Assembly: GCF_050320075.1 (NCBI RefSeq)
Contig: NZ_CP190018.1
DNA length: 64,000 nucleotides
Source of the DNA: Escherichia coli
GTDB taxonomy: Bacteria > Pseudomonadota > Gammaproteobacteria > Enterobacterales > Enterobacteriaceae
Strand: one strand, 5' to 3'
The position numbers and the translations under genes were made by a program. Below the pieces are notes generated by a model. The model was not told the DNA's origin, did not search any database, and saw only the letters and a list, made by a program, of their open reading frames with translations. Below, piece after piece: positions 5,698 to 29,798 of this stretch (positions are counted from its first letter, which is position 1; the number at the start of each line of letters is the position of its first letter).

Positions 5698-5709
5698 GGA
5701 GAATAAAAA

Positions 5710-6935: not shown

Positions 6936-7243
6936 TGAGCGAAGTACACAACGTAACTATTGAAATGATGGATCTGGTTATTGATTTACAGAAAGCAGTA
7001 AACGCGGCTCTGACTTTTCCAAGCGAGCTAACCATCACACAGGCGGTTATTAATCTGGAATCGACGCGGGAAGCACTGCAACTACTTATTGCAGCGTGCG
7101 AAGAGAGCGAAGGTGCACAGATTGAAGCTGATGACCTTTCTAATCTGATCATCGTCATTCATGACACCACTGAAATCATGAAAGAAGCGGTAGCAGATCT
7201 GCAACCCCTCATTAATGAATTAATCGATAAGGCTAACAACTAA
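6935..7243 (+). CDS. hypothetical acidic protein (102 aa)
   Basis: ORF track; start overlaps upstream stop (ATAATG), suggesting translational coupling. Confidence 0.5.
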   Translation: MSEVHNVTIEMMDLVIDLQKAVNAALTFPSELTITQAVINLESTREALQLLIAACEESEGAQIEADDLSNLIIVIHDTTEIMKEAVADLQPLINELIDKANN

Positions 7244-7452
7244 TGTCAAAAACTAAACGTGTGCGCCTTCTGGCGCTCACAGAAGAAGGGAAAGCGGGTA
7301 ATTGTTTCACAGTAGGTAAAGTGTATACCGGCTTACTCGACACTTACACCCGCCTGATGCACGTAACCGATGATAACGGTAACGATCAAACAATCGTTTT
7401 AGATGGTAATTGCGTATTTGGTGAGTGGGAACTGACAACCGAAAAAAGTTGA
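7243..7452 (+). CDS. hypothetical protein (69 aa)
   Basis: ORF track; start overlaps upstream stop (TAATG). Confidence 0.5.
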   Translation: MSKTKRVRLLALTEEGKAGNCFTVGKVYTGLLDTYTRLMHVTDDNGNDQTIVLDGNCVFGEWELTTEKS

Positions 7453-7471
7453 AAATAATTGCATTTACCTA

Positions 7472-7500
7472 TTGACTTTTACTAACAGAAATGTTAGAAT
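7472..7500 (+). promoter_or_regulatory. near-consensus sigma70 promoter (TTGACT, 17 nt spacer, TAGAAT)
   Basis: -35 at 7472..7477, -10 at 7495..7500; followed by ~820 nt without any ORF of 60 codons or more on the plus strand. Confidence 0.55.
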
Positions 7501-7506
7501 AATAAA

Positions 7507-8291
7507 TGTTGGGTTTGGAATCGAAAATAGGTGTTAGCTGGCGTTAATCCTTCTCCCGATTCTAATCCTACACGAAAGCGGGGTAGACCTCAAGGGGTCG
7601 CGCCCTATCTAACCTATCCCGCTTTCCCTTTACAGTGATTTTTTAGAAATTGTTTCCCTCGTTAATAGTTTCATTTTATTTTCCTTATTGCTTTATCAAA
7701 ATTGTGTCTTAAGAATGCAGGGGCTACGGATTTGGCCCCTCATCTTTTTAACCAACTGCGAAGCATGAAACACTTTCTAAAAACACTGTTTACAGTGTCT
7801 ATAAACCCCGTATAAACAAATAACGGTGTATATCTGTTTCTTGACAACAGTTTTCTACTAAGCTTAAAGCTGAATATGTTTTTGTTTGTTGGTGTTTATT
7901 AAGGTGCCAATCTTAGAACGCGAAAGCGTGGATGATCCCCGAAATCATCTCGGCACCGCCTCCTATTAAAATGAGAATCCAAAAGGTTTGAAAGTTAATA
8001 GGTGATTCCTGAAAGTCTGATCGATGCATCCACATTGTGAAAGACAGCGATTAGCCGTCGCACGAATAACAGGTTTATAGATTCCTCTCCAAAGGGGGCG
8101 ACCTCCTAAGCGCCTACTCCCTGTAAGCCTGTTATTCACCCCTCAAGGGTATATAACAATAAGCAATCTTATTCTTATATGTCCTCCTCTTTAAGTTCAT
8201 ATAAACTGCGATTTAGTAACACTCTATAACATCCTTCAAATGTTGTATTCATAAAGCCGGAAGCTTTCCCCTTCCGGTTTTATTTTTATCA
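7507..8291 (+). ncRNA. candidate structured leader or noncoding RNA region
   Basis: ORF-poor; stem-loops at 7575..7626 (GAAAGCGGG / CCCGCTTTC), 7719..7749 (AGGGGC, 10 nt loop, GCCCCT then T-run) and 8065..8136 (AATAACAGG / CCTGTTATT); ends at terminator 8257..8291. Boundaries and function are inferred. Confidence 0.3.
8257..8291 (+). terminator. rho-independent terminator-like hairpin (CCGGAAG, loop, CTTCCGG, then T-run)
   Basis: Inverted repeat with following TTTTATTTTTAT, just upstream of the 8331 ORF. Confidence 0.5.
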
Positions 8292-8330
8292 GCACTAAAC
8301 AAGACTGTTAGGAATAAAGGTAAAGCAATA

Positions 8331-8546
8331 ATGCAAAATCTCATTCTAAAGAATGGTAACGAAGAATTGGTTATCACTGATGAAACATTCAATGCTACGG
8401 CTTATATGCTGGGGATCACTCCCACAGAATTGAAAAAACATTGTGATAAGCTTTTTAAGTCTGCTGATGAACAGAAACCTACTATGCAGGATCTGATTAA
8501 AGCAAAAGCAGAACAAATCAAACAATCCAAAAAAGGAAACTATTAA
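8331..8546 (+). CDS. hypothetical protein (71 aa)
   Basis: ORF track; immediately precedes the capsid-like gene pair. Confidence 0.5.
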   Translation: MQNLILKNGNEELVITDETFNATAYMLGITPTELKKHCDKLFKSADEQKPTMQDLIKAKAEQIKQSKKGNY

Positions 8547-8548
8547 TT

Positions 8549-8920
8549 ATGGCTATTATTAATATGAGCGATCTGTTTCCAGTTCGCAAATCATTTACCG
8601 ATATCGTTTCATATGCAACTGATGAGTTCGGTTGTGTGCAATCTTTTACCGTTGATCTGGCGGTTGATGTTGAATGCGGCGATCTGATTACCAGTGACGG
8701 CGCTGAATATGTAAGCGGCGGCGATGTTCTTGTAGTTGTGTCTGATGCGGTATCCGCTGGCGACGCTAAAACCGTTAACGTGCTGCGTAGCAATGCCGGA
8801 CTGGTTTGCATCAAGTCCGATGCTCTGAATGTTGAAGGCGCTGTGAAAGAAGCTGCTATTGCTGCCCTGGCTGCAAAAGGTTTCCAGATGGCTGGTTTTA
8901 ACACTGTATTCACATCTTAA
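8549..8920 (+). CDS. putative virion structural protein (123 aa), possibly head-decoration-like
   Basis: Small Gly/Ala/Val-rich protein directly upstream of and coupled to the 342 aa gene; codon usage is strongly biased toward highly-expressed E. coli codons. Resemblance to a lambda D-type decoration protein is by size and arrangement only. Confidence 0.4.
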   Translation: MAIINMSDLFPVRKSFTDIVSYATDEFGCVQSFTVDLAVDVECGDLITSDGAEYVSGGDVLVVVSDAVSAGDAKTVNVLRSNAGLVCIKSDALNVEGAVKEAAIAALAAKGFQMAGFNTVFTS

Positions 8921-8938
8921 TATAAAGGAATAAAAATA

Positions 8939-9967
8939 ATGATTATTGGTAATGAATCCGTCGATCTGGCTCCGCTGTTTAGTCTGCACGACTCTCGCAA
9001 CTTCCTGTTAACTTCTCTCGACTTTACTGATCCGGTAGGTGTGAGTTCTCATAAAGTGGCTGTTAGCCAACTGGTGGAAACTAACGAATCTCTGTTCAAC
9101 AAAGAAACCTCTCGTTTCTCTTCTGAACATAACGTGACTAAACGTGAACAGGGTAAAGAATTTTTAGTAGAGATCCCCTACTTCCTGCGTGAAGATATGA
9201 TTAAGCCGCAAGACGTGCAAGGCAAACGTAAACCAGGCGCTACCGTTGAAGAAACTCTGACAGATATCTACGCGGAATATGTTGCTAAGCACCACATTGC
9301 TTTCCAGCGTACTAAAGAAAGCGTGCTGGCTGCTTCCCTGTTCTCTGGTCGCACTTACACCCCTAAAACTGATGATGTGCTGATCCAGTGGGGCGATCTG
9401 TTTAGTGTTGTTCCGATGACTGCAACCATCGACGCATCAAGCACCACGCCTTCTATGGTGTTCCAGCAATTCGATCAGATGCATACAGACGTTATTACTA
9501 AAGCACAAAGCCAGGCGGCTGCTGTAGAACGTATCGTTGTATTCTGTAAACCTGCTGCTTTCAACGCTATCCGTTACAGTGCTGGCATGGTTAACGCGTT
9601 CCAGTATGCAAGCCCTACCGATGACGCAAACATCGTTTATAGCGTGCGCTCCCTGCTGCCAGGTGTGACTACCTTCACTATTCCTGGGACTAACATCGAT
9701 ATCGTTAAAGTTACTGATCCGCTGCTGCTGGCTCATATGACTTCTGATGCGGTTGCTGTTCCGAAGTTCGCTAAAGGCTCTAACGTCTATCAGAACATTT
9801 TCAGCGCTCCTTCTTCAACGTTCGACCTGCTGAATTCTGGCGCGGCTGAATATTACAGCTATGCGTTTAGCCCAGCACGTAACGACGCTGTAAACGTAGT
9901 TACTGAGAATAGCCAGATGGTTGTAAACCACGGCGTAGGCTTCACTGTACAGATCACAGTAGCGTAA
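8939..9967 (+). CDS. putative major capsid-like protein (342 aa)
   Basis: Size and position (after a ~120 aa protein) resemble a lambda D/E-type head gene pair; AAGGAA RBS; codons strongly optimised (CGT, CTG, TCT, AAC, GAA) unlike neighbouring genes. Not confirmed by homology. Confidence 0.45.
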   Translation: MIIGNESVDLAPLFSLHDSRNFLLTSLDFTDPVGVSSHKVAVSQLVETNESLFNKETSRFSSEHNVTKREQGKEFLVEIPYFLREDMIKPQDVQGKRKPGATVEETLTDIYAEYVAKHHIAFQRTKESVLAASLFSGRTYTPKTDDVLIQWGDLFSVVPMTATIDASSTTPSMVFQQFDQMHTDVITKAQSQAAAVERIVVFCKPAAFNAIRYSAGMVNAFQYASPTDDANIVYSVRSLLPGVTTFTIPGTNIDIVKVTDPLLLAHMTSDAVAVPKFAKGSNVYQNIFSAPSSTFDLLNSGAAEYYSYAFSPARNDAVNVVTENSQMVVNHGVGFTVQITVA

Positions 9968-10120
9968 TAAAGCGTTAATAGTCGTTTCCTGTGCGACTGG
10001 AAATAAAACAGGCAATAAGGGCAAAAGGGATTATTAAACCTGTAGCGCAAATACAGTAAACAATCTCTTTTGCCCTTTTTTCGTTTATACCGTCTATTAA
10101 AATATTGTGAGAGAAAAATC

Positions 10121-10312
10121 ATGAGCGAACAAAACAACAATCCAGTTGAGATCCTGAAAGCTGTTTCCACCTTACCGGAAGATATTCTGAATATCTCTCA
10201 AGTGTGTAAGTTTTTAGGGATCTCTAATACTGCTGTACGTCAAAGAATCTTCACTACTGGCTGCTCAGCTATGGAAGCAGTGCAATACTACGTAACAAAA
10301 CAAAACAAATAA
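10121..10312 (+). CDS. hypothetical small protein (63 aa), possible HTH
   Basis: Internal ATG of ORF 10070..10312 (MSEQNNNPVEIL...); segment ISQVCKFLGISNTAVRQRI is helix-turn-helix-like. Confidence 0.35.
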   Translation: MSEQNNNPVEILKAVSTLPEDILNISQVCKFLGISNTAVRQRIFTTGCSAMEAVQYYVTKQNK

Positions 10313-10330
10313 AAGGTAAAGGAAAATATT

Positions 10331-12172
10331 ATGGATTTAAACATCTCAACCTTAACAAACAAGGTTGTATTTAAAGTTGATTTTGCATCATTACAGAAAG
10401 CAAGGGACGCAGGGAAGAAATTTCAGAAAGAAATGGAAAACCTAACCAATCCAACATTGAAAGGGAAGAAGGCTAAACGAGCTATAGACGAGGCTCATGA
10501 TCTGGTAAAGGCTCGTAAAGCTGCACAGGCTAAAACTGATGCCAAAGCGTCAGACAAGCAAGCTCAAACCGATAAGAAGAACGCTGATAAGGTGGCAAAG
10601 GCAGAAGCTAAAGCGAAGGCTAAAGCCGCTATAGCTGCCGATAAACAGATCCGCGCTAAAGCGACAATAGCAGAGAAAGCAGAGATTAAGCGCCAGCAAG
10701 CTTTCAGACAGCTTGAAGGGATTAAGAAAGGGCGTATGGGCGACGGTATGGACTCCGCCCAATACTACAAAACGTTGCAATACATCAAAGCACAAACGGC
10801 AGCGTATGAGAAAGGCGCTATTAGTCAGGCTAAGATGAATCACCTGATCCGTGATCGTATCACGTTAGAACGCCGTGCGGCTGCTGTAAAAGCTCGCCAG
10901 GTGGCGGCTGATGGCGGTAAATATCCACATATGGCTAAACAGCTTAAAGGCGGTCATATAGGCGGTGGTGTAGGTGCAATGGTGGGCGGTGCCGCTCTCA
11001 CTGCTGCCACTCTCGGCGGTGCTGCGATATTCAATACCGTAACCGATCAGGCAAGCAAGATCACAGACACTAACCGCAAGGCAAAGGCTGTCAACGTAAA
11101 CACTAACGCCCTGTTAGCACTTAATCAGTACGGCTTAGAACACGGTGTCGATAGTTCCGTAGACCAACGTCAAGACAACCTTAAAGACGTTCAAGAGCGT
11201 TTAGGTGAATCCGTAGGGAATACCAAATGGGACGCTAAGAAAGGTCGCTGGGCTGGCGGTAATGGTGCCGTCGATAACATCCTTAATAAATATGGTTGGA
11301 GTCCTGAACAGATTAAAGGTTTCCAGACTGATCCATTAGGTTTCCTGGGCGCTGTAGTGAAAGAAGGAGAACGCCGTGGACTCTCTGATCAGGAGCAGGG
11401 TCACATCCTTGAAGACCTTGGAAATGATTTACAATATTTCCGTGGTGCTTTCAGTCGTAACGGTGAAGAGCTAAATAAAACCATCGTTAAGATGCAAAAA
11501 GCCAATGCCACCTATGCGCAAGCGGATCTTGACGCTGCTGAACGTCTGCAAGCTGTACAGGCTAATATGAATATGGCCTGGGAAGGTAGTAAGAAAGCTA
11601 TCATGACGGGATTCGGTGAAGAGTTCGACGCTCAGGCTGGTGAAGAGTGGGCGCAAATGTTGAAAGATCTCAATCCTCTGTTTAAAGAACTTGGAAGCTC
11701 AACGGCTGAAATGATGAGCGCCTTTGCTGGTGCTGTATCGTGGCTTACTGCTGCATACCAGAATATAAATCCAGAGAACAAACATGAAAACCTTGATTCG
11801 TCCGGTATGTATTATAAGGATTCGTTTGTAGGCGGCATGGTTGATTGGGGTCGTAGTGCTTTAGGCTTATCGCCTATCCCTGGCACGGAAGACAAGCCAA
11901 CGACTGGCGGAACTGCAATTCAGAACTATTCAAGCCCGTCCGATAACGTGCAATCCCTGAAAGAGAACGTTAGCCGTGATCTGAACACTACCCCATCTAT
12001 GACGTATGCGCCAAGCATTGTCGTAAACGTGCCAGAAAGTAAGGTTGATGTGAATATCGCTCCTGATGGTAGTCAGCTTGGATCATACCTCGATTACAAA
12101 GTGGGAAGTATCCAACAAGATTTTGAACGTAGTTTCACGTTGGCGGCTCTGTCTGGGCAAGCACCAAGTTAA
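10331..12172 (+). CDS. large coiled-coil / glycine-zipper protein (613 aa); tape-measure-, scaffold- or DNA-pilot-like
   Basis: Lys/Ala-rich coiled-coil stretch (KAKAKAAIAADKQIRAKATIAEKAEIKRQQ), then glycine-zipper hydrophobic segment GGHIGGGVGAMVGGAALTAATLGGAAIF. Function inferred from composition only. Confidence 0.5.
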   Translation: MDLNISTLTNKVVFKVDFASLQKARDAGKKFQKEMENLTNPTLKGKKAKRAIDEAHDLVKARKAAQAKTDAKASDKQAQTDKKNADKVAKAEAKAKAKAAIAADKQIRAKATIAEKAEIKRQQAFRQLEGIKKGRMGDGMDSAQYYKTLQYIKAQTAAYEKGAISQAKMNHLIRDRITLERRAAAVKARQVAADGGKYPHMAKQLKGGHIGGGVGAMVGGAALTAATLGGAAIFNTVTDQASKITDTNRKAKAVNVNTNALLALNQYGLEHGVDSSVDQRQDNLKDVQERLGESVGNTKWDAKKGRWAGGNGAVDNILNKYGWSPEQIKGFQTDPLGFLGAVVKEGERRGLSDQEQGHILEDLGNDLQYFRGAFSRNGEELNKTIVKMQKANATYAQADLDAAERLQAVQANMNMAWEGSKKAIMTGFGEEFDAQAGEEWAQMLKDLNPLFKELGSSTAEMMSAFAGAVSWLTAAYQNINPENKHENLDSSGMYYKDSFVGGMVDWGRSALGLSPIPGTEDKPTTGGTAIQNYSSPSDNVQSLKENVSRDLNTTPSMTYAPSIVVNVPESKVDVNIAPDGSQLGSYLDYKVGSIQQDFERSFTLAALSGQAPS

Positions 12173-12228
12173 TGATAAAGAGAATGTTTAATCACCATTT
12201 AAAACACTCTTATAAGGAATTAAGCATA

Positions 12229-12259
12229 TAAGAGGCTCCCATTACAAGGAAGCCTCTTT
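12229..12259. terminator. bidirectional terminator-like hairpin between convergent 613 aa gene and integrase
   Basis: Inverted repeat AGAGGCT(CC) ... (GGA)AGCCTCT flanked by A/T-rich runs. Confidence 0.4.
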
Positions 12260-12279
12260 ATTGCGCCTATGGCGTTGTT

Positions 12280-13441
12280 TTAAGCCTTAAAATCAATATT
12301 TAATTCATATCTTACTAATTCTACATATTCAGCTAATTCTGGAATGCTTGCCCCTTGTGAGTAGGTGCGAAAGGCTTCTGTTTTAGCTCTCTGCTCTGTA
12401 TGTCCGGTAATGGCACCGATCCGCTGTTCAGGCACTCCGGCACGATCAAGACAAGTGATAAACATCCCGCGCAAGCTGTGAAAGCATTGTCTATTTGTAG
12501 CGATTGGCAAGACGCTACGACGTAAACGTGAGAACGCTTGAGAATAGAACGGGCCTTTCTTACCGTCGATTCTTTTTACTTTGTTCGAGTGAGGGAACAA
12601 ATATTCACCATAATTATGATTTAAATATTCATCGACAATAATCGATAGTCTCGAATGTATCGGAACGTGCCTGATCCCTGCTTTAGTCTTACTTTTGCTG
12701 ATATAAAAACAGCGTATTCCTTCCACAGTTACAACCTCTGACTTTTTCAGACTTGCCAGTTCGTCTAATCTGCATCCTGAAAACAAGCCCATTAAAATAA
12801 TATTTCTGATCTCCGGCTCCGCTGCATCAAGTAGCTTTTGCATTTGTTCAGGTGTAAACGGTTGATAACTCTCGATTGTGCGACGTGCTTCGAGATTATG
12901 ACCGTGAAAAGGGTTACTGTCTGGTATTCCGTCATAACGGCGTTTAGCAAATTCATAGAGCGATCCTAAGCATGTAAGCCAGTTTTGACGAGATTGATCG
13001 GCTGCTCCTCGTTGCTTCTGGTCATCTAAGAATACTGTTACAAGCCGTCTGCCTATTTTCTCAATATGAATATCATCTTTCTGAATGCTTTGTAAAAATA
13101 GCTCAACGGCCCTTGCTGATTTCTGTAGTGTTGAGTATGAACGACGCTCTCTGTAGCATTCGGCGTATTCGTCACGTATTAAGCATAGGGAAGGCGATGC
13201 ATAACCGCGTTTTACGGCTCTTTGCGTGTTTTTATTGGCCCTTGCCTCTGAATGTAAGGATTCAATAGCTTGTTGTAACCTCCTTTCGGGGTTATCAGGA
13301 TTATGTTTCCGCTTTAGTTCCTCCCATTCTAATAATAGATGGTTTCTGAATCTTCTCGCCTCATTCAGATCTCGTGTAGATGTGCTTTTTCTCCACAACT
13401 TGTAAGGGTAAAGATGACGTAAGTATTTAGGAACAAAAATC
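12280..13441 (-). pseudogene. tyrosine recombinase / integrase with 5-prime end disrupted by IS1
   Basis: C-terminal catalytic motifs of tyrosine recombinases (R in GCRLDEL, HSLRGMF, GHTEQ...FRTYSQG). The ORF's first 5 codons (to 13455) lie inside the IS1 inverted repeat, so the native start and promoter are missing. Confidence 0.8.
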
Positions 13442-13496
13442 GGTGATGCTGCCAACTTACTGATTTAGTGTATGATGGTGTTTTTGAGGTGCTCCA

Positions 13497-13772
13497 GTGG
13501 CTTCTGTTTCTATCAGCTGTCCCTCCTGTTCAGCTACTGACGGGGTGGTGCGTAACGGCAAAAGCACCGCCGGACATCAGCGCTATCTCTGCTCTCACTG
13601 CCGTAAAACATGGCAACTGCAGTTCACTTACACCGCTTCTCAACCCGGTACGCACCAGAAAATCATTGATATGGCCATGAATGGCGTTGGATGCCGGGCA
13701 ACCGCCCGCATTATGGGCGTTGGCCTCAACACGATTTTCCGCCATTTAAAAAACTCAGGCCGCAGTCGGTAA
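13497..13772 (+). CDS. insA: IS1 InsA
   Basis: 91 aa product matches remembered IS1 InsA ([32 protein letters not shown]...). Confidence 0.95.
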
Positions 13773-14194
13773 CCTCGCGCATACAGCCGGGCAGTGACGT
13801 CATCGTCTGCGCGGAAATGGACGAACAGTGGGGATACGTCGGGGCTAAATCGCGCCAGCGCTGGCTGTTTTACGCGTATGACAGGCTCCGGAAGACGGTT
13901 GTTGCGCACGTATTCGGTGAACGCACTATGGCGACGCTGGGGCGTCTTATGAGCCTGCTGTCACCCTTTGACGTGGTGATATGGATGACGGATGGCTGGC
14001 CGCTGTATGAATCCCGCCTGAAGGGAAAGCTGCACGTAATCAGCAAGCGATATACGCAGCGAATTGAGCGGCATAACCTGAATCTGAGGCAGCACCTGGC
14101 ACGGCTGGGACGGAAGTCGCTGTCGTTCTCAAAATCGGTGGAGCTGCATGACAAAGTCATCGGGCATTATCTGAACATAAAACACTATCAATAA
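13691..14194 (+). CDS. insB: IS1 InsB reading frame (expressed as InsAB by frameshift)
   Basis: 167 aa ORF overlapping insA in the -1 frame, typical IS1 organisation. Confidence 0.9.
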
Positions 14195-14478
14195 GTTGGA
14201 GTCATTACCCTTTGGCTATGAATAATTCTGATTTGACGAATCCAGAGGACTTATAGATCACTGTCTCCGGTTTAATAACTTGAATATAATCTAATTCTAA
14301 TATTTTAAACGCCTAATGATTTTTCAACACGGGTGTTATTCTGCTTACGCAAAAATTTTATTTTTAATTATATTTCATTATTATTTCATCAATGTATTCT
14401 TTGGATTTTGCTTATAATAATAATGGAAGGGATGATTATAAATGAATGCGTTATTGCATTTACACTCAGGATGAATAT

Positions 14479-15111
14479 ATGGGAAAGATTAAAATTGTAG
14501 TTTCAGATCAGCAGCCGTTTATGATTGATGGGATAATTGGATTTCTCGGACATTATCCCGATTTATATGAGGTTGTTGGGGGCTATAAAGATCTGAAGAA
14601 AGCTATCGCGGAGTGTAACAAATCTGCAGCCCAAATATTTATTTTAGGAGAATTTGCAGGTGGAATGATGGGGTCCGAACTCATAAAATGGGTTAAATCG
14701 CATAAAATAGATGCTCATATTATTACATTTGTAGCAAAAATGCCGTATATTGATTCAATAAAATTGCTTGAAGCCGGTGCGAAAGGATGCGTATGGAAAA
14801 CCAGTCATCCGGCGAAACTAAATCGCGCTATTGATTCGATTAGTAATGGTTACACTTATTTTGATAGTGTACATATGGATTGTGAAAAAATATCTTCAAG
14901 ATATTCCTCTGATAATCAACTTACAAATCGTGAGTCTGAAATACTACAACTCATAGCTGATGGGAAAACAAACAAAGAAATCGCTAATTTCTTGCAGTTA
15001 AGCAGGAAAACAGTCGAAACTCATAGACTCAATATCATGAAGAAATTAGATGTTCACAGTGGTATCGAGTTGATCAAAACAGCTTTACGTATGGGTGTTT
15101 GCACTATATAA
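14479..15111 (+). CDS. ygeK: LuxR-family response regulator (ETT2 remnant)
   Basis: 210 aa from [12 protein letters not shown]; C-terminal LuxR-type HTH ([39 protein letters not shown]). Confidence 0.8.
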
Positions 15112-15129
15112 AAAAAAGAGGCTTTAGGT

Positions 15130-15633
15130 TTATTTTGCTAAAGCCTTACGCTTGTCTATTTCATTAAGTCTGGTATATACAACATATATTTTTTTTGCAT
15201 ATTGCAGCCTCTTTTTTTTGTTTTCCATTGCAAAACCCGCGTTATATGTCCCCAGACATTGCCACGTTACCCCACAACGTGAAAAATGATTATATAAAAT
15301 CTCGGTCCCTATTTTAATGTTCAGACAGGGGTTATCTAACAAATCTCGTCCATCTTTTATTATTCCACGTTTTTTTAACATGGGAATGTGCATCTGGTTT
15401 ATCTGCATTAAACCATAATCAACACTCTTTATATTGTTTTTCTTATCCCTGTTTTTGCCGATGCTATCATTTTTTAAATTACTTTCAACAAGAGCGATAG
15501 CTTTGATCAAATTTGGTTCGATTCTGAAAATTGATCCTGCTTCATTAAAGCAAGCGCTACTGGCGAAAGACATTTTTGTAATTAATATAGAAAACATGAA
15601 GATGGATAAGATTTTAACTTTGGGTAAGCGCAT
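15130..15633 (-). CDS. pbl: IagB-like lytic transglycosylase (T3SS-associated)
   Basis: Signal peptide plus soluble lytic transglycosylase motifs (ALVESN..., GLMQIN, TYNAG). Confidence 0.8.
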   Translation of the reverse strand: MRLPKVKILSIFMFSILITKMSFASSACFNEAGSIFRIEPNLIKAIALVESNLKNDSIGKNRDKKNNIKSVDYGLMQINQMHIPMLKKRGIIKDGRDLLDNPCLNIKIGTEILYNHFSRCGVTWQCLGTYNAGFAMENKKKRLQYAKKIYVVYTRLNEIDKRKALAK

Positions 15634-15716
15634 ATATTTTTATGTGTAGGATTGAAGGAAAGGAACGAGATACTAATATATTCAGTATCTCGTTAATCAT
15701 TTAAGTGGTCAATTAT

Positions 15717-15935
15717 CTACCATTCCAGTTCATAGTAAGGAGAGATAGGATTATCTTTCGAATACATATCATTTTGAAAAGATGCCATCCATGTTGAAAC
15801 TATAAATGCTTGTATTTGATCTGTATCAGTAGTACTGGTGGTGATGTGTTTATCTAATGAAACGACTTCATCACCCGTTGCGGTTGCTATATTTAAACTT
15901 TGAGAAAAATTATTCATATTGATTGGATTAGTCAT
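15717..15935 (-). CDS. ygeI: hypothetical ETT2 protein (72 aa)
   Basis: Size and position match remembered ygeI between pbl and ygeH. Confidence 0.55.
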   Translation of the reverse strand: MTNPINMNNFSQSLNIATATGDEVVSLDKHITTSTTDTDQIQAFIVSTWMASFQNDMYSKDNPISPYYELEW

Positions 15936-16102
15936 AAAATTCCCTTTTTTATTTGTCCAGGCCAATAGCCTATACACAATACTTTTTAATCTAGAGTATT
16001 TGATATATATTGCAATAAGGTAATTATCTTAGATGTTTTCATCTCTGTTGTTGACATAACCAGTTGCATACATCTAAACAATAAAATTGCGACAATAAAG
16101 AT

Positions 16103-17479
16103 TTATCGCATACAAATTCTCGTCAGTTGCTTTAGTTTCAAAATGTTGTCAATTATAACTCGATGGCTTTCACTCGAAGTTTCTTTATAGTAGAGTTTCA
16201 TGTTGCTTTTGAGCGGGTTAGGCACATACATATCTACACACTCTTTTATCACAACTGCTTTTCGTCTTCTGGGTTCGAGTTGTAGTGATTTGTCTATACA
16301 AATCCTTGCCTCTTCAATTCTTTCATTATGAAAATTGACAAGTGCTCTATAGTAGTAGAGAGAGGCTATATCAGTTGTGTGTATCTTAGCCTGTTCAAAT
16401 AAGATATGAGATACTTTTGCTTGTCCAGACAGACCAGTTATCAGTCCCATAATAGCTAAAATTTTTCCATCGACATTGGTTATGTCTGATACATAATGTA
16501 AAAGCTCTAATGCTTTTTGAGCAGCAAGTTCAAGTTCATACTTTCCATGAAGTGCCAAAGACATATGGCATTCCGCTAGCAGACAATAACATTCTATTTT
16601 TAGCGTCTGTATATCACTTTTATTTTGTAATCCATCAAATATAGCCATAGCCCTGTAAATGCTTTCAGGAGTAAACTCGTAAAGTTCTTTCTTACCAGCC
16701 AACAGTTCATCTGATAAATAATGATTCTTATAACCTTGGTCCGGTTTAGCTAATCTTACAGAACGCTCTGGATTATGTACCGTTTGAAGGATATTATCTA
16801 TAATAAATTGTGATGTGTTATGTAGTTCATCAACAGGAAGATGATTACTGGCGATGAGGAAAAGATTTTTAGCGTCGATCAGTTCAATGTATAAAGTTTT
16901 CACCGCGTTATTCTGGTTTATTCTTCCTGTAACGAAATAATCTGGCTTGAATCTTCTCAAAAATGAATTTTGCGATATGTGATCATTACAAAAATTTGTC
17001 GCAGCCATCGGATAGGTATAAAGGCCATCGATTTTTTTATTCGAAATGTTTTGCACTAATTCCTGATTAAGTATTAATGGATCCAGAGTATTCAATGAAG
17101 TGGTGAAAGGAAATATAGCTATGGAATAGTCTGAAGTGTTATCTTCATTTATTTTAGTTTTGAAAACCTGTCCACTGAAACGATAACCTTTCCGGTAGAT
17201 TGTTTCTATGCAACGATCATAGCCAATTTTTTCAAAAATGCAGCGCAAAGAATAGATACATCTTGTCAGGGACTCGTCACTTACAATAATATTTTTCCAT
17301 ACTGATTCGATGATCATATCTTTCAGGACAACATGACCAGCGGATTCAAGTAATACGATCAATACTCCTAACTCTTTCGGTGGAATATAAATCTGCTCAT
17401 TTCCTTGAGTAAGAATTCCATCTTCCGTGAGCGTTAATCCCTCGAGAAAATGATATGAGAATTTATTTTCTAAGTCCAT
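16103..17479 (-). CDS. ygeH: HilA-like transcriptional regulator (OmpR/ToxR-type winged helix plus TPR region)
   Basis: 458 aa; N-terminal winged-helix DNA-binding domain, large C-terminal helical region. Confidence 0.85.
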
Positions 17480-17813
17480 TAGTTATCCTCTATGAAAAAA
17501 TTGGTTTCTTGCATCCTGCATAAGCAATAGAAATTGTGGCTATTCATATTTATGTGTCATTAATGCTACAGGAGTTTACATTCGACATATCTATGATTGT
17601 GTTCACTAATTTATCTTAGGAATTCAGTGATGTAATCTGAAATAGCCTTATTCAATTTTGATAAAATAGATTGTTCTCTAACGCGTTGAAAAATAGTAAT
17701 TTATAGTGTGTTCTTAACTGTTTTAAGATGTTGATTTAAGAAAACATAAGAGAAGCTGGTCATAGTGGTTAACTGCACTATAACCAGCAATTTTTACCAA
17801 ATGCTTGTAATGC

Positions 17814-18305
17814 TTAGCCATTATCTTCTGAATTATCGGTTAAGAGTTCAATATATGCCTGCGCTTTGCTCTTAACACTTTCATCCTCACAATTGTTAAT
17901 AATATGATAGAAACATTGCATTGCGTTATCGATATTTTTAGCCCCAATTTGACATTGACCCATACGATAAATAACTGAATAGTCATCATACGGGGAGTAA
18001 TTGTAACTTAGTTTGTAAAGGTCATATGCTTGTTGATATTTCTTTTTTGACTGGCATACTGATGCAAAACCTTTTAGATATTCATGATTTTCGAACGCAT
18101 AAATGCACAGAAATTTATAATAAATTTCTGCGTCCGTTATATTACCTTTTTCATGGTAGTCGAATGCATATGCATATATTCTATCAAGGATATCAGGAGT
18201 CAATCCATGTAGTAATGCCAGATTTTCTCCTTGTGATAATGCGTGTTTTAGTTGACTTGCCCATTCATCACTGTTATTGAATATTTCAAGTGTATCTGTG
18301 CTCAT
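17814..18305 (-). CDS. ygeG: SycD/LcrH-like tetratricopeptide T3SS chaperone
   Basis: 163 aa from MSTDTLEIF; TPR-like repeats; the ORF track's longer form has an N-terminal extension. Confidence 0.8.
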   Translation of the reverse strand: MSTDTLEIFNNSDEWASQLKHALSQGENLALLHGLTPDILDRIYAYAFDYHEKGNITDAEIYYKFLCIYAFENHEYLKGFASVCQSKKKYQQAYDLYKLSYNYSPYDDYSVIYRMGQCQIGAKNIDNAMQCFYHIINNCEDESVKSKAQAYIELLTDNSEDNG

Positions 18306-18528
18306 AATATTCCTCTGTGATGTGTTTCGTGATGCTAAATTATTATTAATTGACTCATTATTTTTTGCATTTATCTTTTTTGAATTATGAGTTTTAAGCT
18401 TGCATTGCTTAAGGGTATATTGGTTCATTATTAGTAAAAATACTGACCACTATAAACCAATAATGTCATTAGTTTTTTTCTAATATTCACCTTATTAGTT
18501 ATCTTATTTACGACATTTCATAAATGCC

Positions 18529-19020
18529 TTAATATGCATGACCTTGATTCATATTATCAATTTCCCTTTTTTCGATGAAAATTAAAAAGGGGATTTTTGC
18601 GAAGGGTAGTAAGTCGTCTAGTTTTTTTTCTTTATTATGTCTGGTGACGAGGGGGGATAGAACGTCGGTGCATATAGTAGAGAATTTATTCAGGTCTAAA
18701 TTATTCTCTATTTTGGCCAGTTTTATGAGTTCATTTGTAGCCATACTCATTAAATCATCTGTTATCGGAAATTTATATATGCTCATAGCCGATAATATTG
18801 CTTGCTGAATTATTTCTTCAGAAATATCCGCTATCTTTATTGACAAATCATGTGTTAGATATTTTCCTCCAAGAGATTCTTGTTCAATATAATTTAAACC
18901 AGACCTCATCGTAATTTTAACTGGATTCACGTATTTCTCTTCATTTTTCTTATTTTTGTTCTCCTGATCAGGAACTAATGGTTGCAGTGGTAGGCTATTA
19001 TTAATATTTCGTGGCTTCAT
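18529..19020 (-). CDS. ygeF: hypothetical ETT2 protein (163 aa)
   Basis: ORF track; position upstream of ygeG. Confidence 0.55.
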   Translation of the reverse strand: MKPRNINNSLPLQPLVPDQENKNKKNEEKYVNPVKITMRSGLNYIEQESLGGKYLTHDLSIKIADISEEIIQQAILSAMSIYKFPITDDLMSMATNELIKLAKIENNLDLNKFSTICTDVLSPLVTRHNKEKKLDDLLPFAKIPFLIFIEKREIDNMNQGHAY

Positions 19021-19449
19021 TTTACATTTCTCTCATTTGATTAGAGCAAAATCCGAATTCGCAGCTTCTGATAATGTCAAATATCACCTTTTCTCATGCT
19101 TTATTCTATCAAAAATCGCTCATTTTTACTTTTTTTACCATAATGTTACTTAGTGGCATCGGCAATTTACATAACTTACATGTTGTTTTTTATATCCTGA
19201 AAAAACAGATAGATAGTGTGCACACTCGAAATGATATTGGTAACATAAATAGCTTTATTCGTGACAAACATCTCAAAAGATTTCCTTTATTATTTTCGAA
19301 ATTCATTTGATCAAGGTTATCACCTTATGGAGACGTTACGTAGAATGACTATATTTGTTATCGGCACATTAGGGGTATTAAATTTAGTATTGATGGAAGG
19401 TGATTATTGAACAGTAACATCGAGTCACGGTCAAAATGTGAGGTATATA

Positions 19450-19875
19450 ATGGACATTGAGTTTTCGCAGATTCATGAAATGGTCTATATGCATGATATT
19501 GTAAATTCGGACTCGAAAAAGAAACCAAGGATTCCGTTAAAAAAATTCCTTAATGCTGAGAAAGTTCTCACGCAAACAACATCATGGGTACTAAATTCAA
19601 GATATGTGAATGTTAATTCTGTCAGTAAAGTCAACGTAAAGAGTAAAGTTAAAAACAGTTATATCTCACGATCTGTCAATGATGAGTTTAGTTTAACAGA
19701 TGATGAAATCAATTCTTTTAAAGAAACGTTAGTCCTTTCCTCTATTGATTCTCTAAGTAAACTGGTTCTTAATAATCCTCTTTCTGTATTGTTTACATCG
19801 ACTGTACGAAGGAATAATAATAGAGCTAAGATGAATGTTGAGTTCGACTCATGGATTTGCACCAGATGTTGTTGA
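19450..19875 (+). CDS. yqeK: hypothetical protein (141 aa)
   Basis: Start at MDIEFSQ; size matches remembered yqeK. Confidence 0.55.
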
Positions 19876-20023
19876 TACATGATATTTTGCATTGCAAGGT
19901 GATATCTAAAATGAAAGATGTTGATCAAAACTTTGATGCTTTATACTGGCATATACTACAAGCATATTTAATTTTATTGTTTTATGATTAACGAGGTTCC
20001 ATCTTTTTATTATCTATTTAAGT

Positions 20024-20518
20024 TTACCTTGCACAATGCATTATTGCTCTGTTACCAATACTCAAAATAAAAGCATGCTTACCTTGCTTTAGTATATTAT
20101 AGCTTACACTTTTTTCTGGAAAGACATAAAAATCAGGAATAAGTTCTGCAAGTCTATCATCATCGACTTGATCCATGATCTCAAATTTATTAACTTTCTT
20201 TGATGTTAAATGGGCTGTGTCATAGTTTTCAATCCATGTGTATTCAATATTTCGCCGTATTGACTTACTTTCTCTGTTACCTTGTTGCCAGGTTCCGCTC
20301 AACGCAACAGTTCCTGTTTTATTTTTTTGGTTATACATAAAGTCGATGGTAAGATTTGCTCGCCCCTTGTCATTAAAAATTACCCAATTTGCAGTGCATG
20401 TTTCATTATATATCATTTTTTCTGCAGTATAAGAGTAAACAATGAAGAGAATAAACCCACTGATAAAAACTAAAATAAATAATAAGTTTTTTTTATAATC
20501 AATCACGATTAACCTCAC
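20024..20518 (-). CDS. yqeJ: hypothetical membrane-anchored protein
   Basis: N-terminal transmembrane helix (LLFILVFISGFILFIVYSY); position matches. Confidence 0.6.
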   Translation of the reverse strand: MRLIVIDYKKNLLFILVFISGFILFIVYSYTAEKMIYNETCTANWVIFNDKGRANLTIDFMYNQKNKTGTVALSGTWQQGNRESKSIRRNIEYTWIENYDTAHLTSKKVNKFEIMDQVDDDRLAELIPDFYVFPEKSVSYNILKQGKHAFILSIGNRAIMHCAR

Positions 20519-21308
20519 GGTAAGACAGGGTTAAACAGCCTGCCACTTCATGTTGGTTATAGTTTTTATTGCATGCCATAACAATCATCCCTGGTGAGGA
20601 TTTTGCAAGAGGGAAGTATAACCACGGATATTTTTTACAGTTAATCCCCGAATCCAGTATCCGTGTCTTATATTTATCGAACTCTTTCAACCCATCAATT
20701 GTATCTTCTGTCACATTAAAATGGCAGCCATTAATTTCCGCAACAGTCTTGTAATCCTTGAAGAATGGCTTCGGTTGATTATTATTCCATAGCCAATGTG
20801 CAGAATATACGCCTATAGCAAATATGCTCAACATAATTAGATAACTTTTTATATGTTTGAGGATTTTGTTATTGAAATTGTTTGCGCCACCAATGCTCTC
20901 TTTGTACCCCGCATTACCTTTTATGGCAGGTGGGGCATTGTGTGTATGTGCGTCTGTTGAAGAGTTTATTACATGATTTTGTATGTTAATGTCATTATGA
21001 ATCTTGAATCCTCTTCTCGGCACGGTTGCAATAAGCGAGTGGGTGGTATCACCAACAGCGCGAAATCCGCGTCTGATAATGGATATGTTCTGATATAACG
21101 TGTTAGTTGGCACACGCATACCTTCTTCTTCCCAGACTCTGGTGAAAAAATCTTGTTGTGCAACCACATCAGGAAAAGCTTCAAGTAGAAGTGATAAACA
21201 ACGACTGGCTGGCGTTGTCAGAACGACGTTAAGATCGGCGTTATGTACCGATATTAATTTTCGGTGCTCAGGCCAGAACTCGATATTATCGTTAATAATC
21301 CAGTACAT
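20499..21308 (-). CDS. yqeI: ToxR/CadC-like membrane transcriptional regulator (269 aa)
   Basis: N-terminal OmpR-type winged helix followed by a transmembrane segment (IMLSIFAIGVYSAHWLW). Confidence 0.8.
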   Translation of the reverse strand: MYWIINDNIEFWPEHRKLISVHNADLNVVLTTPASRCLSLLLEAFPDVVAQQDFFTRVWEEEGMRVPTNTLYQNISIIRRGFRAVGDTTHSLIATVPRRGFKIHNDINIQNHVINSSTDAHTHNAPPAIKGNAGYKESIGGANNFNNKILKHIKSYLIMLSIFAIGVYSAHWLWNNNQPKPFFKDYKTVAEINGCHFNVTEDTIDGLKEFDKYKTRILDSGINCKKYPWLYFPLAKSSPGMIVMACNKNYNQHEVAGCLTLSYREVNRD

Positions 21309-21641
21309 ACGTCAATAGACACTAAATCAATCAAAATGGAAATCACATAGTTTGCTAAGTATATTGGTATTTACGGCATAAATATATATTAATTTTATAT
21401 TTATCATAATGATTGAAATGAGGCTTTAATGTCGCAACGTAAAACTTTACGTAAATTAACATGATTAACATTTATGCCACTATTGTTTGTAAATTCATAT
21501 TTCGTAATGCTTCTGAATTTTTCGTGTGATGGTTTTAAATACCATGTTGTTTACTCTTGGGGTTACTGCTTATTTGTAAAATACGGGCATTTCAATAGAT
21601 GCCCGTATAAGCAGAGTATGATTCTGGCAGATTATTTAGTA

Positions 21642-22274
21642 TCAATGTTGGACCGAATGTGAACGAATAAATAACTCGTTTATTTTACCACCCATTCTCT
21701 TTTCGATTCGTTGCTTGTACGCGTAGATGCTACGGATATCCATATCCAGAACTTCAGCAATCTGATATGGATTATAACCAGAAACCATATATCCCATTAT
21801 GGTGAATTCCATCTGAGTTAATGTATTCCCTCTGGTAAATGATAAATAACGACCAATAAATAGTTGTCTGATCTTTTCATTGGCAACATCAAGACCATCA
21901 TCATTATATATGACAGCAGATATTGCAGAGTTGTGTTTTCGCCAGTAGTTAGCTAACGATTGCATATTGCGGTCGCTGACTAAAACAATCCCCATGTCAG
22001 TACTTGCAAGATAGTCAATCCAGTCTTTTTCAAGGAATAGACGTAAAAAACTTACTGAAAAATCGACAAAAATATATCCGCTTAATCTCGCATTGTGGTT
22101 TTTTGTTAAAATACCTTCCACCACACCACGATTAAAATATGAACTTTCTTCGGGCCACATACAAAAACACGAGTTTGCGCAATACTGCAAACGCGGTGAC
22201 TCTTCTGGCATTATTTGGCAATGCATTGAGCAACTATTGCATGTAAGACTTTTATAACGACTACAAAGCCCCAT
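21642..22274 (-). CDS. yqeH: LuxR-type transcriptional regulator (210 aa)
   Basis: C-terminal LuxR HTH (GYNPYQIAEVLDMDIRSIYAYKQRIEKRMG); start taken at MGLCSRYK. Confidence 0.75.
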   Translation of the reverse strand: MGLCSRYKSLTCNSCSMHCQIMPEESPRLQYCANSCFCMWPEESSYFNRGVVEGILTKNHNARLSGYIFVDFSVSFLRLFLEKDWIDYLASTDMGIVLVSDRNMQSLANYWRKHNSAISAVIYNDDGLDVANEKIRQLFIGRYLSFTRGNTLTQMEFTIMGYMVSGYNPYQIAEVLDMDIRSIYAYKQRIEKRMGGKINELFIRSHSVQH

Positions 22275-22733
22275 GTTAAGAACCTCCCTATCCGTATATA
22301 ATTGCATAATTTCATTGGTTATTGATGATGTCAATACACCATGATTTTGTAAATTTGCTGGGAAAAATTGCGATTAATCTGAATTTGCTATAATTCTGAG
22401 TAAAGCATTTAAAAATGCATTTCTCGTTATTAAATATGATTATGTTTCACTGATTTAATCTTACCTGGTTGATGGTGGTTCAGATAACTATCTCATGGTA
22501 TGAGAATATCTATATCGCAAATTGTTTTTGAATGACCAGAAGATATCTTGCGAATCTAAGTTATGCATCTTAAATAGTCTTATTTAAGATGTTCAGATCT
22601 CTTTGTGTGTTTAACTAACTGATAATACTAGGATATGACGAGAGAAGTGATAGAGCGGAGTTATAACAAATGAACATTATGAAAACTGGAATGGTTCAAA
22701 ATTGTAGCAATTTTGAACCATTCACAATGGATA

Positions 22734-23963
22734 TTAGCTAAAGAACATTACCGATACGCACAGGATACCCACGATCAGCGTAATCAGATTTCCGATGGAA
22801 CGCCAGGGTTTAAGCGCCGGGATGAGATACGTTGACAGCGTAGGCATGATGAAAAGTATCATGGCAATGAGCGGGCCGCTGATCGCGTAAATCATCGAAA
22901 TCGCGTTCGGGTTAATGCAACAAACAATGAAGGTAATCAGCGATACCAACATAATTGATAGTGCGCGGTTAAATGCACGACTTTTCTTTACACCAACCTG
23001 CTGTAGTGTTGTTTTGACGACCTCTGTGGCACCTTCAATAACGCCAAAGTACGTACCCAGGAATGATTTCGACATCGCAACTACTGCGACAATAATCCCG
23101 GAAATTGACAACCATGCTGGGGCGTTCGGCAGCATAGAAAGCGCCGATAAAATGGTAACCCCTTCTTCTTTAGCCGCTTCAATATACGAAGGTGGAATAG
23201 AAAGCAGGCAGCTAAAGACAAAGAACAGTACACTTATGCAGATGATGAGATAAGCGACTTTCATAATTTTTTTGCATTTATCCATAGCATGTTCGCCATA
23301 TTTTTCACGTCTGTCTATGGCAAACGTAGAAATAATGGGCGTATGGCTAAAGGCGAAAACCATCACGGGAATCGATATCCATATCTGGTGAAGGGTATTC
23401 TGATTGAACTCTACCTGGGTAGTTAATAGATCAGGTTGCCAACTACCGACCAGGTAAATAGAAAGAAATAAGAAATAGGCAATCAATGGGAATACCAAAA
23501 ATCCCATTACCCGAATAGTGGCATGGCGTCCCATCAGAAAAATGAGATTCAGGATTAATACAACACCCAGACTCACCAACATACGGATGCGAAGATCAAT
23601 AACCATATGCTTTGCCAGCTGTTCCGTAAGTGAGTTGGTAATTGCCACGGCATATATCAACACGACGACAAAAAAGGCGATGAAGTACAGCGTGGTAATC
23701 AGATTACCAATCTTCTTGCCATAGTAGTGTGTTACCGCGCCCGTTATCCCTTCACCTGCTGATGTTTTTGATGAGAGGATGAACTGGCATAAGGCTTTAT
23801 GTGGCCAATATGTTAAAGGCCAGGCGACCAGAGCAGTAATAAACAGGACCACAGCCCCTGCCGAACCTAACTGAATAGGAAGGAAGAGCGTGCCTGCACC
23901 AACGGCTGTGCCGTAGAGCGCGAAACTCCACAGAGTTTCTTCTTTTGACCAAATATTAGACAT
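22734..23963 (-). CDS. yqeG: HAAAP-family serine/amino-acid transporter-like inner membrane protein
   Basis: 409 aa polytopic membrane protein; conserved neighbour of yqeF. Confidence 0.9.
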   Translation of the reverse strand: MSNIWSKEETLWSFALYGTAVGAGTLFLPIQLGSAGAVVLFITALVAWPLTYWPHKALCQFILSSKTSAGEGITGAVTHYYGKKIGNLITTLYFIAFFVVVLIYAVAITNSLTEQLAKHMVIDLRIRMLVSLGVVLILNLIFLMGRHATIRVMGFLVFPLIAYFLFLSIYLVGSWQPDLLTTQVEFNQNTLHQIWISIPVMVFAFSHTPIISTFAIDRREKYGEHAMDKCKKIMKVAYLIICISVLFFVFSCLLSIPPSYIEAAKEEGVTILSALSMLPNAPAWLSISGIIVAVVAMSKSFLGTYFGVIEGATEVVKTTLQQVGVKKSRAFNRALSIMLVSLITFIVCCINPNAISMIYAISGPLIAMILFIMPTLSTYLIPALKPWRSIGNLITLIVGILCVSVMFFS

Positions 23964-24217
23964 TATCTGAACGTATCATCTACAAATTAAACAAAATGGA
24001 GGGCAATTTACCATAAACCAGGTTAAGTATGGGAGATTAACGCCCTTTCTACCTCTCTATTGGTGGGTTAGTGGTTGCAAACCTTACGTGCCAGTTATGT
24101 CTCTGACTGCTGGTCAGGCGTATTTCCTTTGTGATAAAAATCACTTTTTTTAAACAATTAAGATAACTGTAATTAACAATCATTTACTATTGCACTGTTA
24201 ATTGGTGCGAGGTTGTG

Positions 24218-29087: not shown

Positions 29088-29798
29088 GCACAGAAAACCC
29101 CCAGCTAGGCTGGGGGTTCCGGAAAGCTTTCAGCTTTGAGCCAGTTATTCAAACCCCTTTTGATTTGTTAAAACACCTTGCGGTCTGGCAACTGCAAGTG
29201 TCAAACAAGAAATCAAAAGGGGGTCCCAATGGGGGACGAAAAGAGCTTAGCGCACACCCGCTGGAACTGTAAATATCACATAGTTTTTGCGCCGAAATAC
29301 CGAAGACTGGCGTTTTACGGAGAGAAGCGTAGGGCGATAGGCAGTATTTTGAGAAAGCTGTGTGAGTGGAAAAGCGTACGGATTCTGGAAGCAGAGTGCC
29401 GCGCAGATCATATCCATATGCTTGTGGAAATCCCACCCAAAATGAGCGTATCCGGCTTTATGGGATATCTGAAAGGGAAAAGCAGTCTGATGCTTTACGA
29501 GCAGTTTGGGGATTTGAAATTCAAATACAGAAACAGGGAGTTCTGGTGCCGAGGGTACTATGTCGATACGGTGGGTAAGAACACGGCGAAGATACAGGAC
29601 TACATAAAGCACCAGCTTGAAGAGGATAAAATGGGGGAGCAGTTATCGATTCCATATCCGGGCAGCCCGTTTACGGGCCGTAAGTAACGAAGTTGAATGC
29701 AAATGTCAGATCGTATGCGCCTGTTAGGGCGCGGCTGGTAACAGAGCCTTACAGGCGCATTTGAAAAACCTCCGGCTATGCCGGAGGATATTTATTCG
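29088..29798 (+). mobile_element. IS200-like insertion element (IS200/IS605 family), boundaries approximate
   Basis: Subterminal hairpins at both ends (AAAACCCCCAGCTAGGCTGGGGG at 29098..29116; AAAACCTCCGGCTATGCCGGAGG at 29769..29787) flank a Y1 transposase gene; ~710 bp. Confidence 0.7.
29229..29687 (+). CDS. tnpA: IS200 transposase TnpA (HuH/Y1 family)
   Basis: 152 aa from MGDEKSLAHTRWNCKYHIVFAPKYRR; HIHMLVEIPPK HuH motif. Confidence 0.9.
   Translation: MGDEKSLAHTRWNCKYHIVFAPKYRRLAFYGEKRRAIGSILRKLCEWKSVRILEAECRADHIHMLVEIPPKMSVSGFMGYLKGKSSLMLYEQFGDLKFKYRNREFWCRGYYVDTVGKNTAKIQDYIKHQLEEDKMGEQLSIPYPGSPFTGRK

Follow-up and report, generated by a model that had tools for sequence, protein, structure and literature searches.

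The second type III secretion system of Escherichia coli (ETT2) has decayed widely through mutation, and multiple deletion isoforms of the cluster have been published (PMC11068852). Among the better preserved loci, those of enteroaggregative E. coli (EAEC) 042, strain AH50 and enterohaemorrhagic E. coli (EHEC) O157:H7 Sakai (ECs3703-ECs3737) share a regulator arm running from yqeH to ygeK and go on past ygeK with orgB, orgA, eprK-H, etrA, epaS-O, eivJ-F and GH15 genes as far as the tRNA gene glyU. Here we describe a 64,000-nucleotide stretch of an E. coli chromosome (the window) whose ETT2 locus carries an orthologous regulator arm and from which all these genes past ygeK are gone, save a 47-bp stub of orgB. 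The window is identical (100%) to part of the chromosome of E. coli YZLc1-3, an isolate from chicken faeces (NZ_CP123240.1), with window position 1 at record position 1084605; the comparison covered positions 14210-22334 and 1-14300. As deposited, the 5.2-Mb chromosome is circular and finished and stands at its second assembly version.

The ETT2 regulators have been studied in strains of several kinds. In EHEC, EtrB (YgeK), EtrA and EivF act on the LEE, the enterocyte effacement locus (PMC11068852, PMC10877973). For etrB, monocistronic transcription, autoregulation and activation by QseA are reported; EtrB activates the LEE through binding of the ler regulatory region and through repression of etrA and eivF (PMC10877973, PMC11068852). 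Mutants of avian pathogenic E. coli (APEC) in ygeK, yqeI or yqeH lost motility, adhesion and virulence, with expression of hundreds of genes changed (PMC8614350, PMC7552227, PMC9014576). YgeH of strain 042 is experimentally active, can replace HilA and is repressed by H-NS (PMC4210603). MarT/FidL of Salmonella have been named as orthologues of YqeI and YqeJ, which are described as a co-component pair resembling ToxR/ToxS and VtrA/VtrC (PMC9214523).

An IS1 element joins a truncated integrase gene to the end of orgB

The left boundary of the ETT2 remnant is an insertion sequence (IS) that abuts, on its other side, a 13.4-kb phage-like element integrated at glyU (element B). The features at this boundary are as follows.

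12280-13441, - strand: tyrosine integrase gene of element B, first 59 bp missing
13442-14209, + strand: IS1 (IS1B type), 768 bp, canonical inverted repeats, marker of the deletion junction
14210-14256, + strand: orgB tail (ygeM-like), last 47 bp of the gene and sole trace of an apparatus gene, encoding a terminus that ends in LAMNNSDLTNPEDL and a stop codon
14257-14478, + strand: native orgB-ygeK intergenic region, 222 bp, preserved and collinear with Sakai, 042 and AH50

The insertion sequence has the expected length of ~768 bp, terminal inverted repeats GGTGATGCTGCCAACTTACTGAT and GGTAATGACTCCAACTTATTGAT and the frameshifted insA/insB transposase of IS1. The sequences on its two sides, ACAAAAATC and CTTTGGCTA, differ, and a 9-bp target-site duplication is therefore absent. 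Left of IS1, homology to the phage-like element of other genomes stops at 13441, within the integrase gene. On the right, homology to Sakai, 042, AH50 and strain Ec-U3 (blastn) begins exactly at 14210, 47 bp before the orgB stop codon. Both flanks keep their native relative order and orientation. Window positions 13441 and 14210 correspond to positions 2126 and 21607 of the AH50 sequence (L009), so that 19,480 bp are gone and the 768-bp IS1 stands in their place. When 300-bp junction probes were compared with 5,426 complete E. coli genomes, each junction was found as a single contiguous match in one genome, that of YZLc1-3 itself. The other matches were to IS1 halves, to IS1 copies at other distances from the integrase gene and, in SW071618, to a different IS1 type nearby.

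Adjacent deletion, or recombination between direct IS1 copies, usually leaves such a mark: one IS1 without target duplication, between flanks in native order and orientation. It is thus very probable that one IS1-associated deletion of ~19.5 kb removed all the apparatus genes and left the ETT2 regulator and accessory block intact. One event would have taken out everything between the 5′ end of the element B integrase gene and the last 47 bp of orgB: the right attachment site (attR) of element B, the GH15 genes (ygeQ/ygeP), a ghoT-like gene, eivF-G-E-A-C-I-J, epaO-P-Q-R-S, etrA with the gene next to it, eprH-I-J-K, orgA and all but the tail of orgB. Either adjacent deletion by intramolecular IS1 transposition or recombination between two direct IS1 copies would account for it. 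What remains is an 8.1-kb block of 33% G+C that codes for four transcription factors: YgeK/EtrB, YgeH, YqeI, whose partner is YqeJ, and YqeH. Also encoded there are a tetratricopeptide repeat (TPR) protein of chaperone type, one lytic transglycosylase and, without assigned function, four small proteins. Any leftover activity would be regulatory and would have to fall on genes elsewhere, as has been published for flagella, adhesion and the LEE in other strains.

No apparatus gene lies in the window or in its 45-kb left flank

The apparatus was searched for by tblastn with 24 proteins. Of these, 21 came from the near-complete ETT2 of AH50 (GH15, GhoT-like, EivF/G/E/A/C/I/J, EpaP/Q/R/S, EtrA and its neighbour, EprH/I/J/K, OrgA and OrgB) and three from Sakai (EpaO, ECs3736 and ECs3737). 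None of these apparatus and glyU-proximal proteins had a match anywhere in 109 kb, made up of the window (64 kb) and 45 kb on its left side, and a YgeK control was matched at 100% in the same search. The left flank in NZ_CP123240.1 holds a second integrative element, followed by glyU (tRNA-Gly), actS and xdhA. The operons typical of ETT2, epr, epa and eiv, were not found at the locus; given this and the mere 47 bp of orgB, it is an ETT2 remnant, not a secretion system, and cannot yield an injectisome.

These results bear on an initial annotation of the window, made from its letters, which held that no secretion apparatus is retained and that apparatus genes directly left of the window would overturn the remnant reading. 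None occurs in the 45 kb leftward, and the remnant reading stands; the claim of complete absence applies to whole genes, since the orgB stub survives and the OrgB C-terminus (LAMNNSDLTNPEDL, then stop) can be read at 14212-14256. The same annotation had the apparatus replaced by IS1 and the phage-like element. IS1 does stand in the 19.5-kb gap; element B, by contrast, is a neighbour truncated by the same event.

The regulator and accessory block is intact

The block between IS1 and yqeG contains eleven genes.

14479-15111, + strand: ygeK/etrB, NarL/LuxR-type regulator, 210 aa, Pfam Response_reg and GerE
15130-15633, - strand: pbl, lytic transglycosylase, SLT domain, 167 aa
15717-15935, - strand: ygeI, 72 aa, without Pfam family
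16103-17479, - strand: ygeH, HilA-like regulator, 458 aa, Trans_reg_C and TPR
17814-18305, - strand: ygeG, TPR_3 protein of the type III secretion chaperone type, 163 aa
18529-19020, - strand: ygeF, 163 aa, without Pfam family
19450-19875, + strand: yqeK, 141 aa, without Pfam family
19911-19991, + strand: yqeL, 26 codons
20024-20506, - strand: yqeJ, 160 aa, N-terminal hydrophobic segment, ToxS/VtrC-like partner of YqeI, without Pfam family
20499-21308, - strand: yqeI, ToxR-like regulator, 269 aa, Trans_reg_C
21642-22274, - strand: yqeH, LuxR-type helix-turn-helix (HTH; GerE), 210 aa

In six-frame open reading frames and in direct translation, all eleven frames run uninterrupted from a start codon to a stop codon. 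Protein lengths equal those of the orthologues in Sakai, K-12, AH50 and 042 wherever the reference gene is intact, except for yqeJ (160 aa here, 159 aa in Sakai and 140 aa as annotated in AH50). Gene order is collinear with the same four genomes, and orthologues of ECs3703-ECs3712 (yqeH to ygeK) fall within one 9.8-kb alignment to Sakai, 042 and AH50. The proteins are 97-100% identical to those of the near-complete ETT2 of EAEC 042: YgeK and YqeH at 100%, YqeI at 98.9% and YgeH at 98.7%, the six substitutions in YgeH all lying outside the winged helix. At the DNA level, identity to Sakai is 95.6% from 14210 onward, and identity to K-12 is 93-97%. The genes ygeK, pbl and ygeF, each a pseudogene in K-12, are intact here; in Sakai, too, pbl is a pseudogene.

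The composition and site of the block are also those of ETT2. Its G+C content of 33.4% contrasts with 51.4% in the remainder of the window, and ~37% has been given as a reference value for ETT2 (PMC11068852). The gene yqeG (22734-23963) lies directly to the right, and on the left only two integrated elements and IS1 separate the remnant from glyU.

The initial annotation fared well here. It had listed ten genes from ygeK to yqeH as present and seemingly intact, and all ten are full length, with names and places that agree with the RefSeq annotation of NZ_CP123240.1; yqeL was missing from its list. Its functional labels (LuxR, HilA-like, TPR, lytic transglycosylase and ToxR-like) are backed by Pfam domains. 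Its range for the remnant, 14210-22334, begins correctly at the first base past IS1; its end is an upstream TTG of the longest yqeH open reading frame, and yqeH itself spans 21642-22274.

A search with Rfam over window 1-24000 gave no RNA family. A consensus scan for promoters and terminators over 13400-22800 gave 52 promoter-like sites against 45.3 +/- 6.8 in shuffled sequence, a difference that says nothing in such AT-rich DNA. By its position, the orgB-ygeK intergenic region (14257-14478) is presumed to hold the ygeK/etrB promoter. We set aside the possibility that ygeK depends on read-through from the lost epr/org genes: a monocistronic, autoregulated etrB has been reported (PMC10877973), and the 222-bp upstream region is kept.

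Domains and constraint of the retained proteins

YgeK carries a C-terminal GerE/LuxR-type HTH domain (PF00196, E = 4.9e-21) and matches the full-length structures of DesR, VraR, RcsB and NarL. Its receiver domain lies barely above the Pfam cut-off (31.2 against 30.2 bits), and in the alignments with DesR and NarL residue 57 is a glycine (motif FILGEFAGG), so that the receiver has no acceptor aspartate there. We take this column to be the phospho-acceptor site of DesR and NarL (motifs MDIEMPG and LLDLNMPG). From its sequence, YgeK/EtrB is probably a phosphorylation-independent, atypical orphan regulator.

YgeH has the architecture of HilA, with Trans_reg_C at residues 28-101 and TPR at 370-437. 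YqeI combines a Trans_reg_C winged helix (residues 28-102) with a hydrophobic segment near 155-175, YqeJ has a hydrophobic segment near residues 8-26, and the two genes overlap by 8 nt. The pair fits a ToxR/ToxS-like co-component layout, in which a protein with a winged helix in the cytoplasm, a single membrane segment and a small domain in the periplasm is encoded beside a membrane-anchored partner. Pbl has an SLT domain (PF01464, E = 1.3e-27) and a hydrophobic, signal-peptide-like N-terminus; its lytic activity is predicted.

Pairwise dN/dS ratios against Sakai, each a single estimate from few substitutions, were 0.04 for ygeK, 0.03 for yqeH, 0.13 for ygeH and 0.16 for yqeI, which suggests long-term constraint on the regulators. 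The corresponding values were 0.63 for ygeI, 0.68 for ygeF and 0.03-0.25 for neighbouring genes. Both ygeI and ygeF may be under relaxed constraint or may evolve fast.

Two integrative elements stand in tandem at glyU

Left of IS1, the window contains the right end of one integrative element and most of another.

1-60, no strand assigned: right end of element A, a distinct integrative element of ~19 kb inserted in glyU, with its bulk left of the window
61-78, + strand: 18-bp copy of the glyU 3′ end, TTCCCTTCGCCCGCTCCA, serving as attR of element A and as left attachment site (attL) of element B
61-13441, no strand assigned: element B, phage-like, 13.4 kb, inserted at glyU, right end truncated

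In NZ_CP123240.1 element A starts just past glyU with an integrase gene, and homology to genomes free of element A resumes at window 61. In Ec-U3, H3 and Sakai the 3′ end of glyU has exactly the sequence of this repeat, TTCCCTTCGCCCGCTCCA. Element B and its counterpart in strain H3 share 99.7% identity. The genes of element B code for a recombinase of the invertase type, a replication-initiator-like protein, a major head protein, one protein with a match to a tape-measure PHROG, and a tyrosine integrase. The intact integrase gene of AH50 and H3 has 1221 bp and encodes 406 aa. The coding sequence annotated here (12280-13455; WP_252148749.1, 391 aa) takes a TTG start at 13455, inside the left end of IS1, and its product is chimeric and probably non-functional.

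In H3, element B follows directly after glyU, as it does in O26:H11 FWSEC0001, judging by the annotation. In AH50 a near-complete ETT2 follows the element, made up of GH15, the ghoT-like gene, the genes from eivF to orgB and those from ygeK to yqeH; in H3 half the cluster follows it. Both genomes have a TTCCCTTCGCCCGCTCCA repeat ~90 bp past the integrase start, and the sequence beyond it is the glyU-downstream sequence of Sakai. In AH50 and H3, element B thus has a direct repeat of the glyU 3′ end on either side. In the window only the left repeat (61-78) remains, attR having been lost together with the first 59 bp of the integrase gene. From the glyU repeats and the complete cluster beside the element in AH50, we conclude that element B integrated at glyU and is compatible with a complete ETT2. 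Integration into ETT2 itself was considered and rejected on the strength of these repeats and of the Sakai sequence beyond attR.

Elements A and B form a tandem array at glyU. Element A occupies 1065461-1084682 of NZ_CP123240.1 (L002 20462-39683) and has genes for an integrase, AntA/B and BRO-N proteins, one Icd-like and one DUF927 protein, SSB, a ProQ/FinO protein and three hypothetical proteins of large size (843, 686 and 918 aa). For the rebuilt glyU the annotation gives 71 nt rather than 74; it reads ...CGCCCGCTCAAAA, so that it is without an encoded CCA end. Within element B, two stretches (2341-4701, 2.4 kb, and 7453-8330, 0.9 kb) had no annotated gene in the records examined and no Rfam match.

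Apparatus loss appears recent and recurs in the species

A sister genome, Ec-U3 (NZ_CM192149.1), shows 100% identity to the window from 14210 to 24000; its IS1B transposase protein is the same as well, and so is the glyU-proximal part of its element B. The difference lies in the IS1 junction, which links position 2587 of element B with eivI and eivJ; Ec-U3 has lost most of element B and the eiv half and keeps epaO′ to orgB, half an apparatus. The two genomes have no IS1 junction in common. The Ec-U3 junction with eivI is rare too: a probe for it was covered by ten genomes, mostly as split matches, and showed no ancestral junction common with the window. Given an identical regulator block beside half an apparatus in Ec-U3, the deletion in the window post-dates a very recent split or a common ancestor that bore the cluster, and apparatus loss in YZLc1-3 looks recent. 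An IS200/IS605 tnpA at window ~29229-29687, between araE and ygeA, is also shared with Ec-U3 and is absent from that place in AH50, 042, Sakai and MSI001.

Other genomes have been altered differently at the same site. SW071618 has IS1, IS3 and IS903 insertions and many frameshifts, with several block genes disrupted, and in MSI001, where IS5 marks the scar, the whole island is gone together with its regulators. Across the glyU-ETT2 interval (L004, L005, L007 and L010), IS1, IS2, IS3, IS5/ISKpn26 and IS903 have gathered, each with its own deletion end-point. From this variety of insertion sequences and end-points, the AT-rich island behaves as a hot spot for insertion sequences and deletions.

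Among the 5,426 genomes, the regulator block matched 4,072 (3,490 at >=80% coverage) and the apparatus block (AH50 eivF to orgB) 3,689 (933 at >=80% coverage). Roughly 470 genomes have a regulator block of >=99% identity. The difference between the two totals means that at least 383 genomes have a match to the regulator block and none to the apparatus block, so that regulators without a machine are a common condition, in agreement with the published attrition of ETT2 (PMC11068852).

Discussion

Several observations weigh against the reading that one IS1-associated deletion removed the apparatus and left regulators that may still act. On the structural side, no precursor genome with IS1 at either junction was found with the 300-bp probes in the 5,426 genomes, and because of this an adjacent deletion and recombination between two copies are not separable; the search for apparatus genes covered 109 kb of a 5.2-Mb chromosome. 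On the regulatory side, the ygeK and yqeI phenotypes come from APEC AE81, in which ETT2 is intact rather than apparatus-less (PMC8614350). The ygeH gene was silenced by H-NS in 042 and in a K-12 reporter (PMC4210603), and the block is AT-rich here as well. YgeH of O157 seemed non-functional though full length (PMC4210603), and an intact frame is therefore no proof of activity. The dN/dS ratios, finally, carry the limits given with them.

Three other accounts of the gap were weighed against a deletion. That the phage-like element and IS1 were inserted into or over ETT2, and so replaced the apparatus genes, is suggested by their standing exactly where the apparatus is expected. It is nevertheless very improbable, since the same element, in a nearly identical copy in H3, sits beside half the cluster there and beside a near-complete ETT2 in AH50, bounded by glyU repeats and followed by glyU-downstream sequence, and since element B is itself damaged in the window. 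Relocation of the apparatus genes elsewhere in the chromosome by an IS1-mediated rearrangement would be accommodated by the portion of the chromosome searched and by the 22 places in NZ_CP123240.1 that match IS1-containing queries; with IS1 flanks in the order and orientation of the intact locus, a pattern of deletion and not of inversion, and no apparatus match in the 109 kb examined, we give it almost no credence. The junction is also a repeat element found in one record only, as it would be if an assembler had collapsed two IS1 copies around an intact segment. Such an artefact is hardly to be expected in a finished circular chromosome at its second assembly version, and IS-linked deletions of varied extent in independent genomes make a real deletion at this locus unremarkable.

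A different question is whether the regulator arm survived by selection as a free-standing module, its presence here being adaptive and not incidental. The excess of genomes with a well-covered regulator block (3,490 against 933 for the apparatus block, and at least 383 with regulators only), the dN/dS ratios of 0.03-0.16 for the four regulators and the published mutant phenotypes (PMC8614350, PMC7552227, PMC9014576) all speak for it. We nonetheless consider it unlikely. The deletion is unique to YZLc1-3 and apparently recent; the intact frames here are inherited from a lineage with intact copies, and the intactness of the regulators tells little about selection because the deletion seems recent. 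Deletions may also start preferentially on the glyU side, where integrases and insertion sequences pile up, which would produce a survival bias without selection. In addition, ygeK, pbl and ygeF have decayed in K-12, several block genes are disrupted in SW071618 and the whole block is lost in MSI001.

It is plausible that the regulators act on distant genes in YZLc1-3. A bolder proposal is that the yqeH-ygeK arm is a self-sufficient regulatory module which E. coli keeps after loss of the injectisome, and in which a NarL-type regulator lacking the acceptor, an activator like HilA, a membrane sensor pair of the ToxR/ToxS kind and a LuxR-type protein are combined. We regard this as quite doubtful; if it were true, YZLc1-3 and Ec-U3 would be a natural near-isogenic pair in which to look for regulator targets without ETT2 machinery. 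More generally, the two strains are a candidate natural control for effects of ETT2 regulators in the absence of local targets.

Both the attrition of ETT2 and distant regulation by its regulators are already published, and the locus is an ordinary example of documented decay. What is added here is the base-level anatomy of one strain-specific, IS1-marked deletion of 19,480 bp that also disabled the adjacent element at glyU. The case teaches that intact frames next to a fresh deletion are not evidence of selective retention.

Comparison with known systems

The remnant of K-12 MG1655 (yqeH to ygeQ, b2846-b2863) occupies the same site, between yqeG and glyU, and shares with the window the order and orientation of yqeH, yqeI, yqeJ, yqeL, yqeK, ygeF, ygeG, ygeH, ygeI, pbl and ygeK. 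There too the apparatus is essentially gone and an insertion sequence stands at the scar. K-12 differs in keeping the pseudogene stubs ygeL, ygeN, ygeO, ygeP and ygeQ beside IS2, whereas the window has an IS1 scar, only 47 bp of orgB, and has lost the glyU-proximal GH15 genes as well. In SPI-1 (pathogenicity island 1 of Salmonella), which the apparatus operons epr, epa and eiv of ETT2 resemble, HilA can be replaced by YgeH of 042 (PMC4210603); in the window YgeH is left without a secretion machinery to activate. MarT/FidL of SPI-3 are the described orthologues of YqeI/YqeJ (PMC9214523), a likeness that in the window is seen in domain content.

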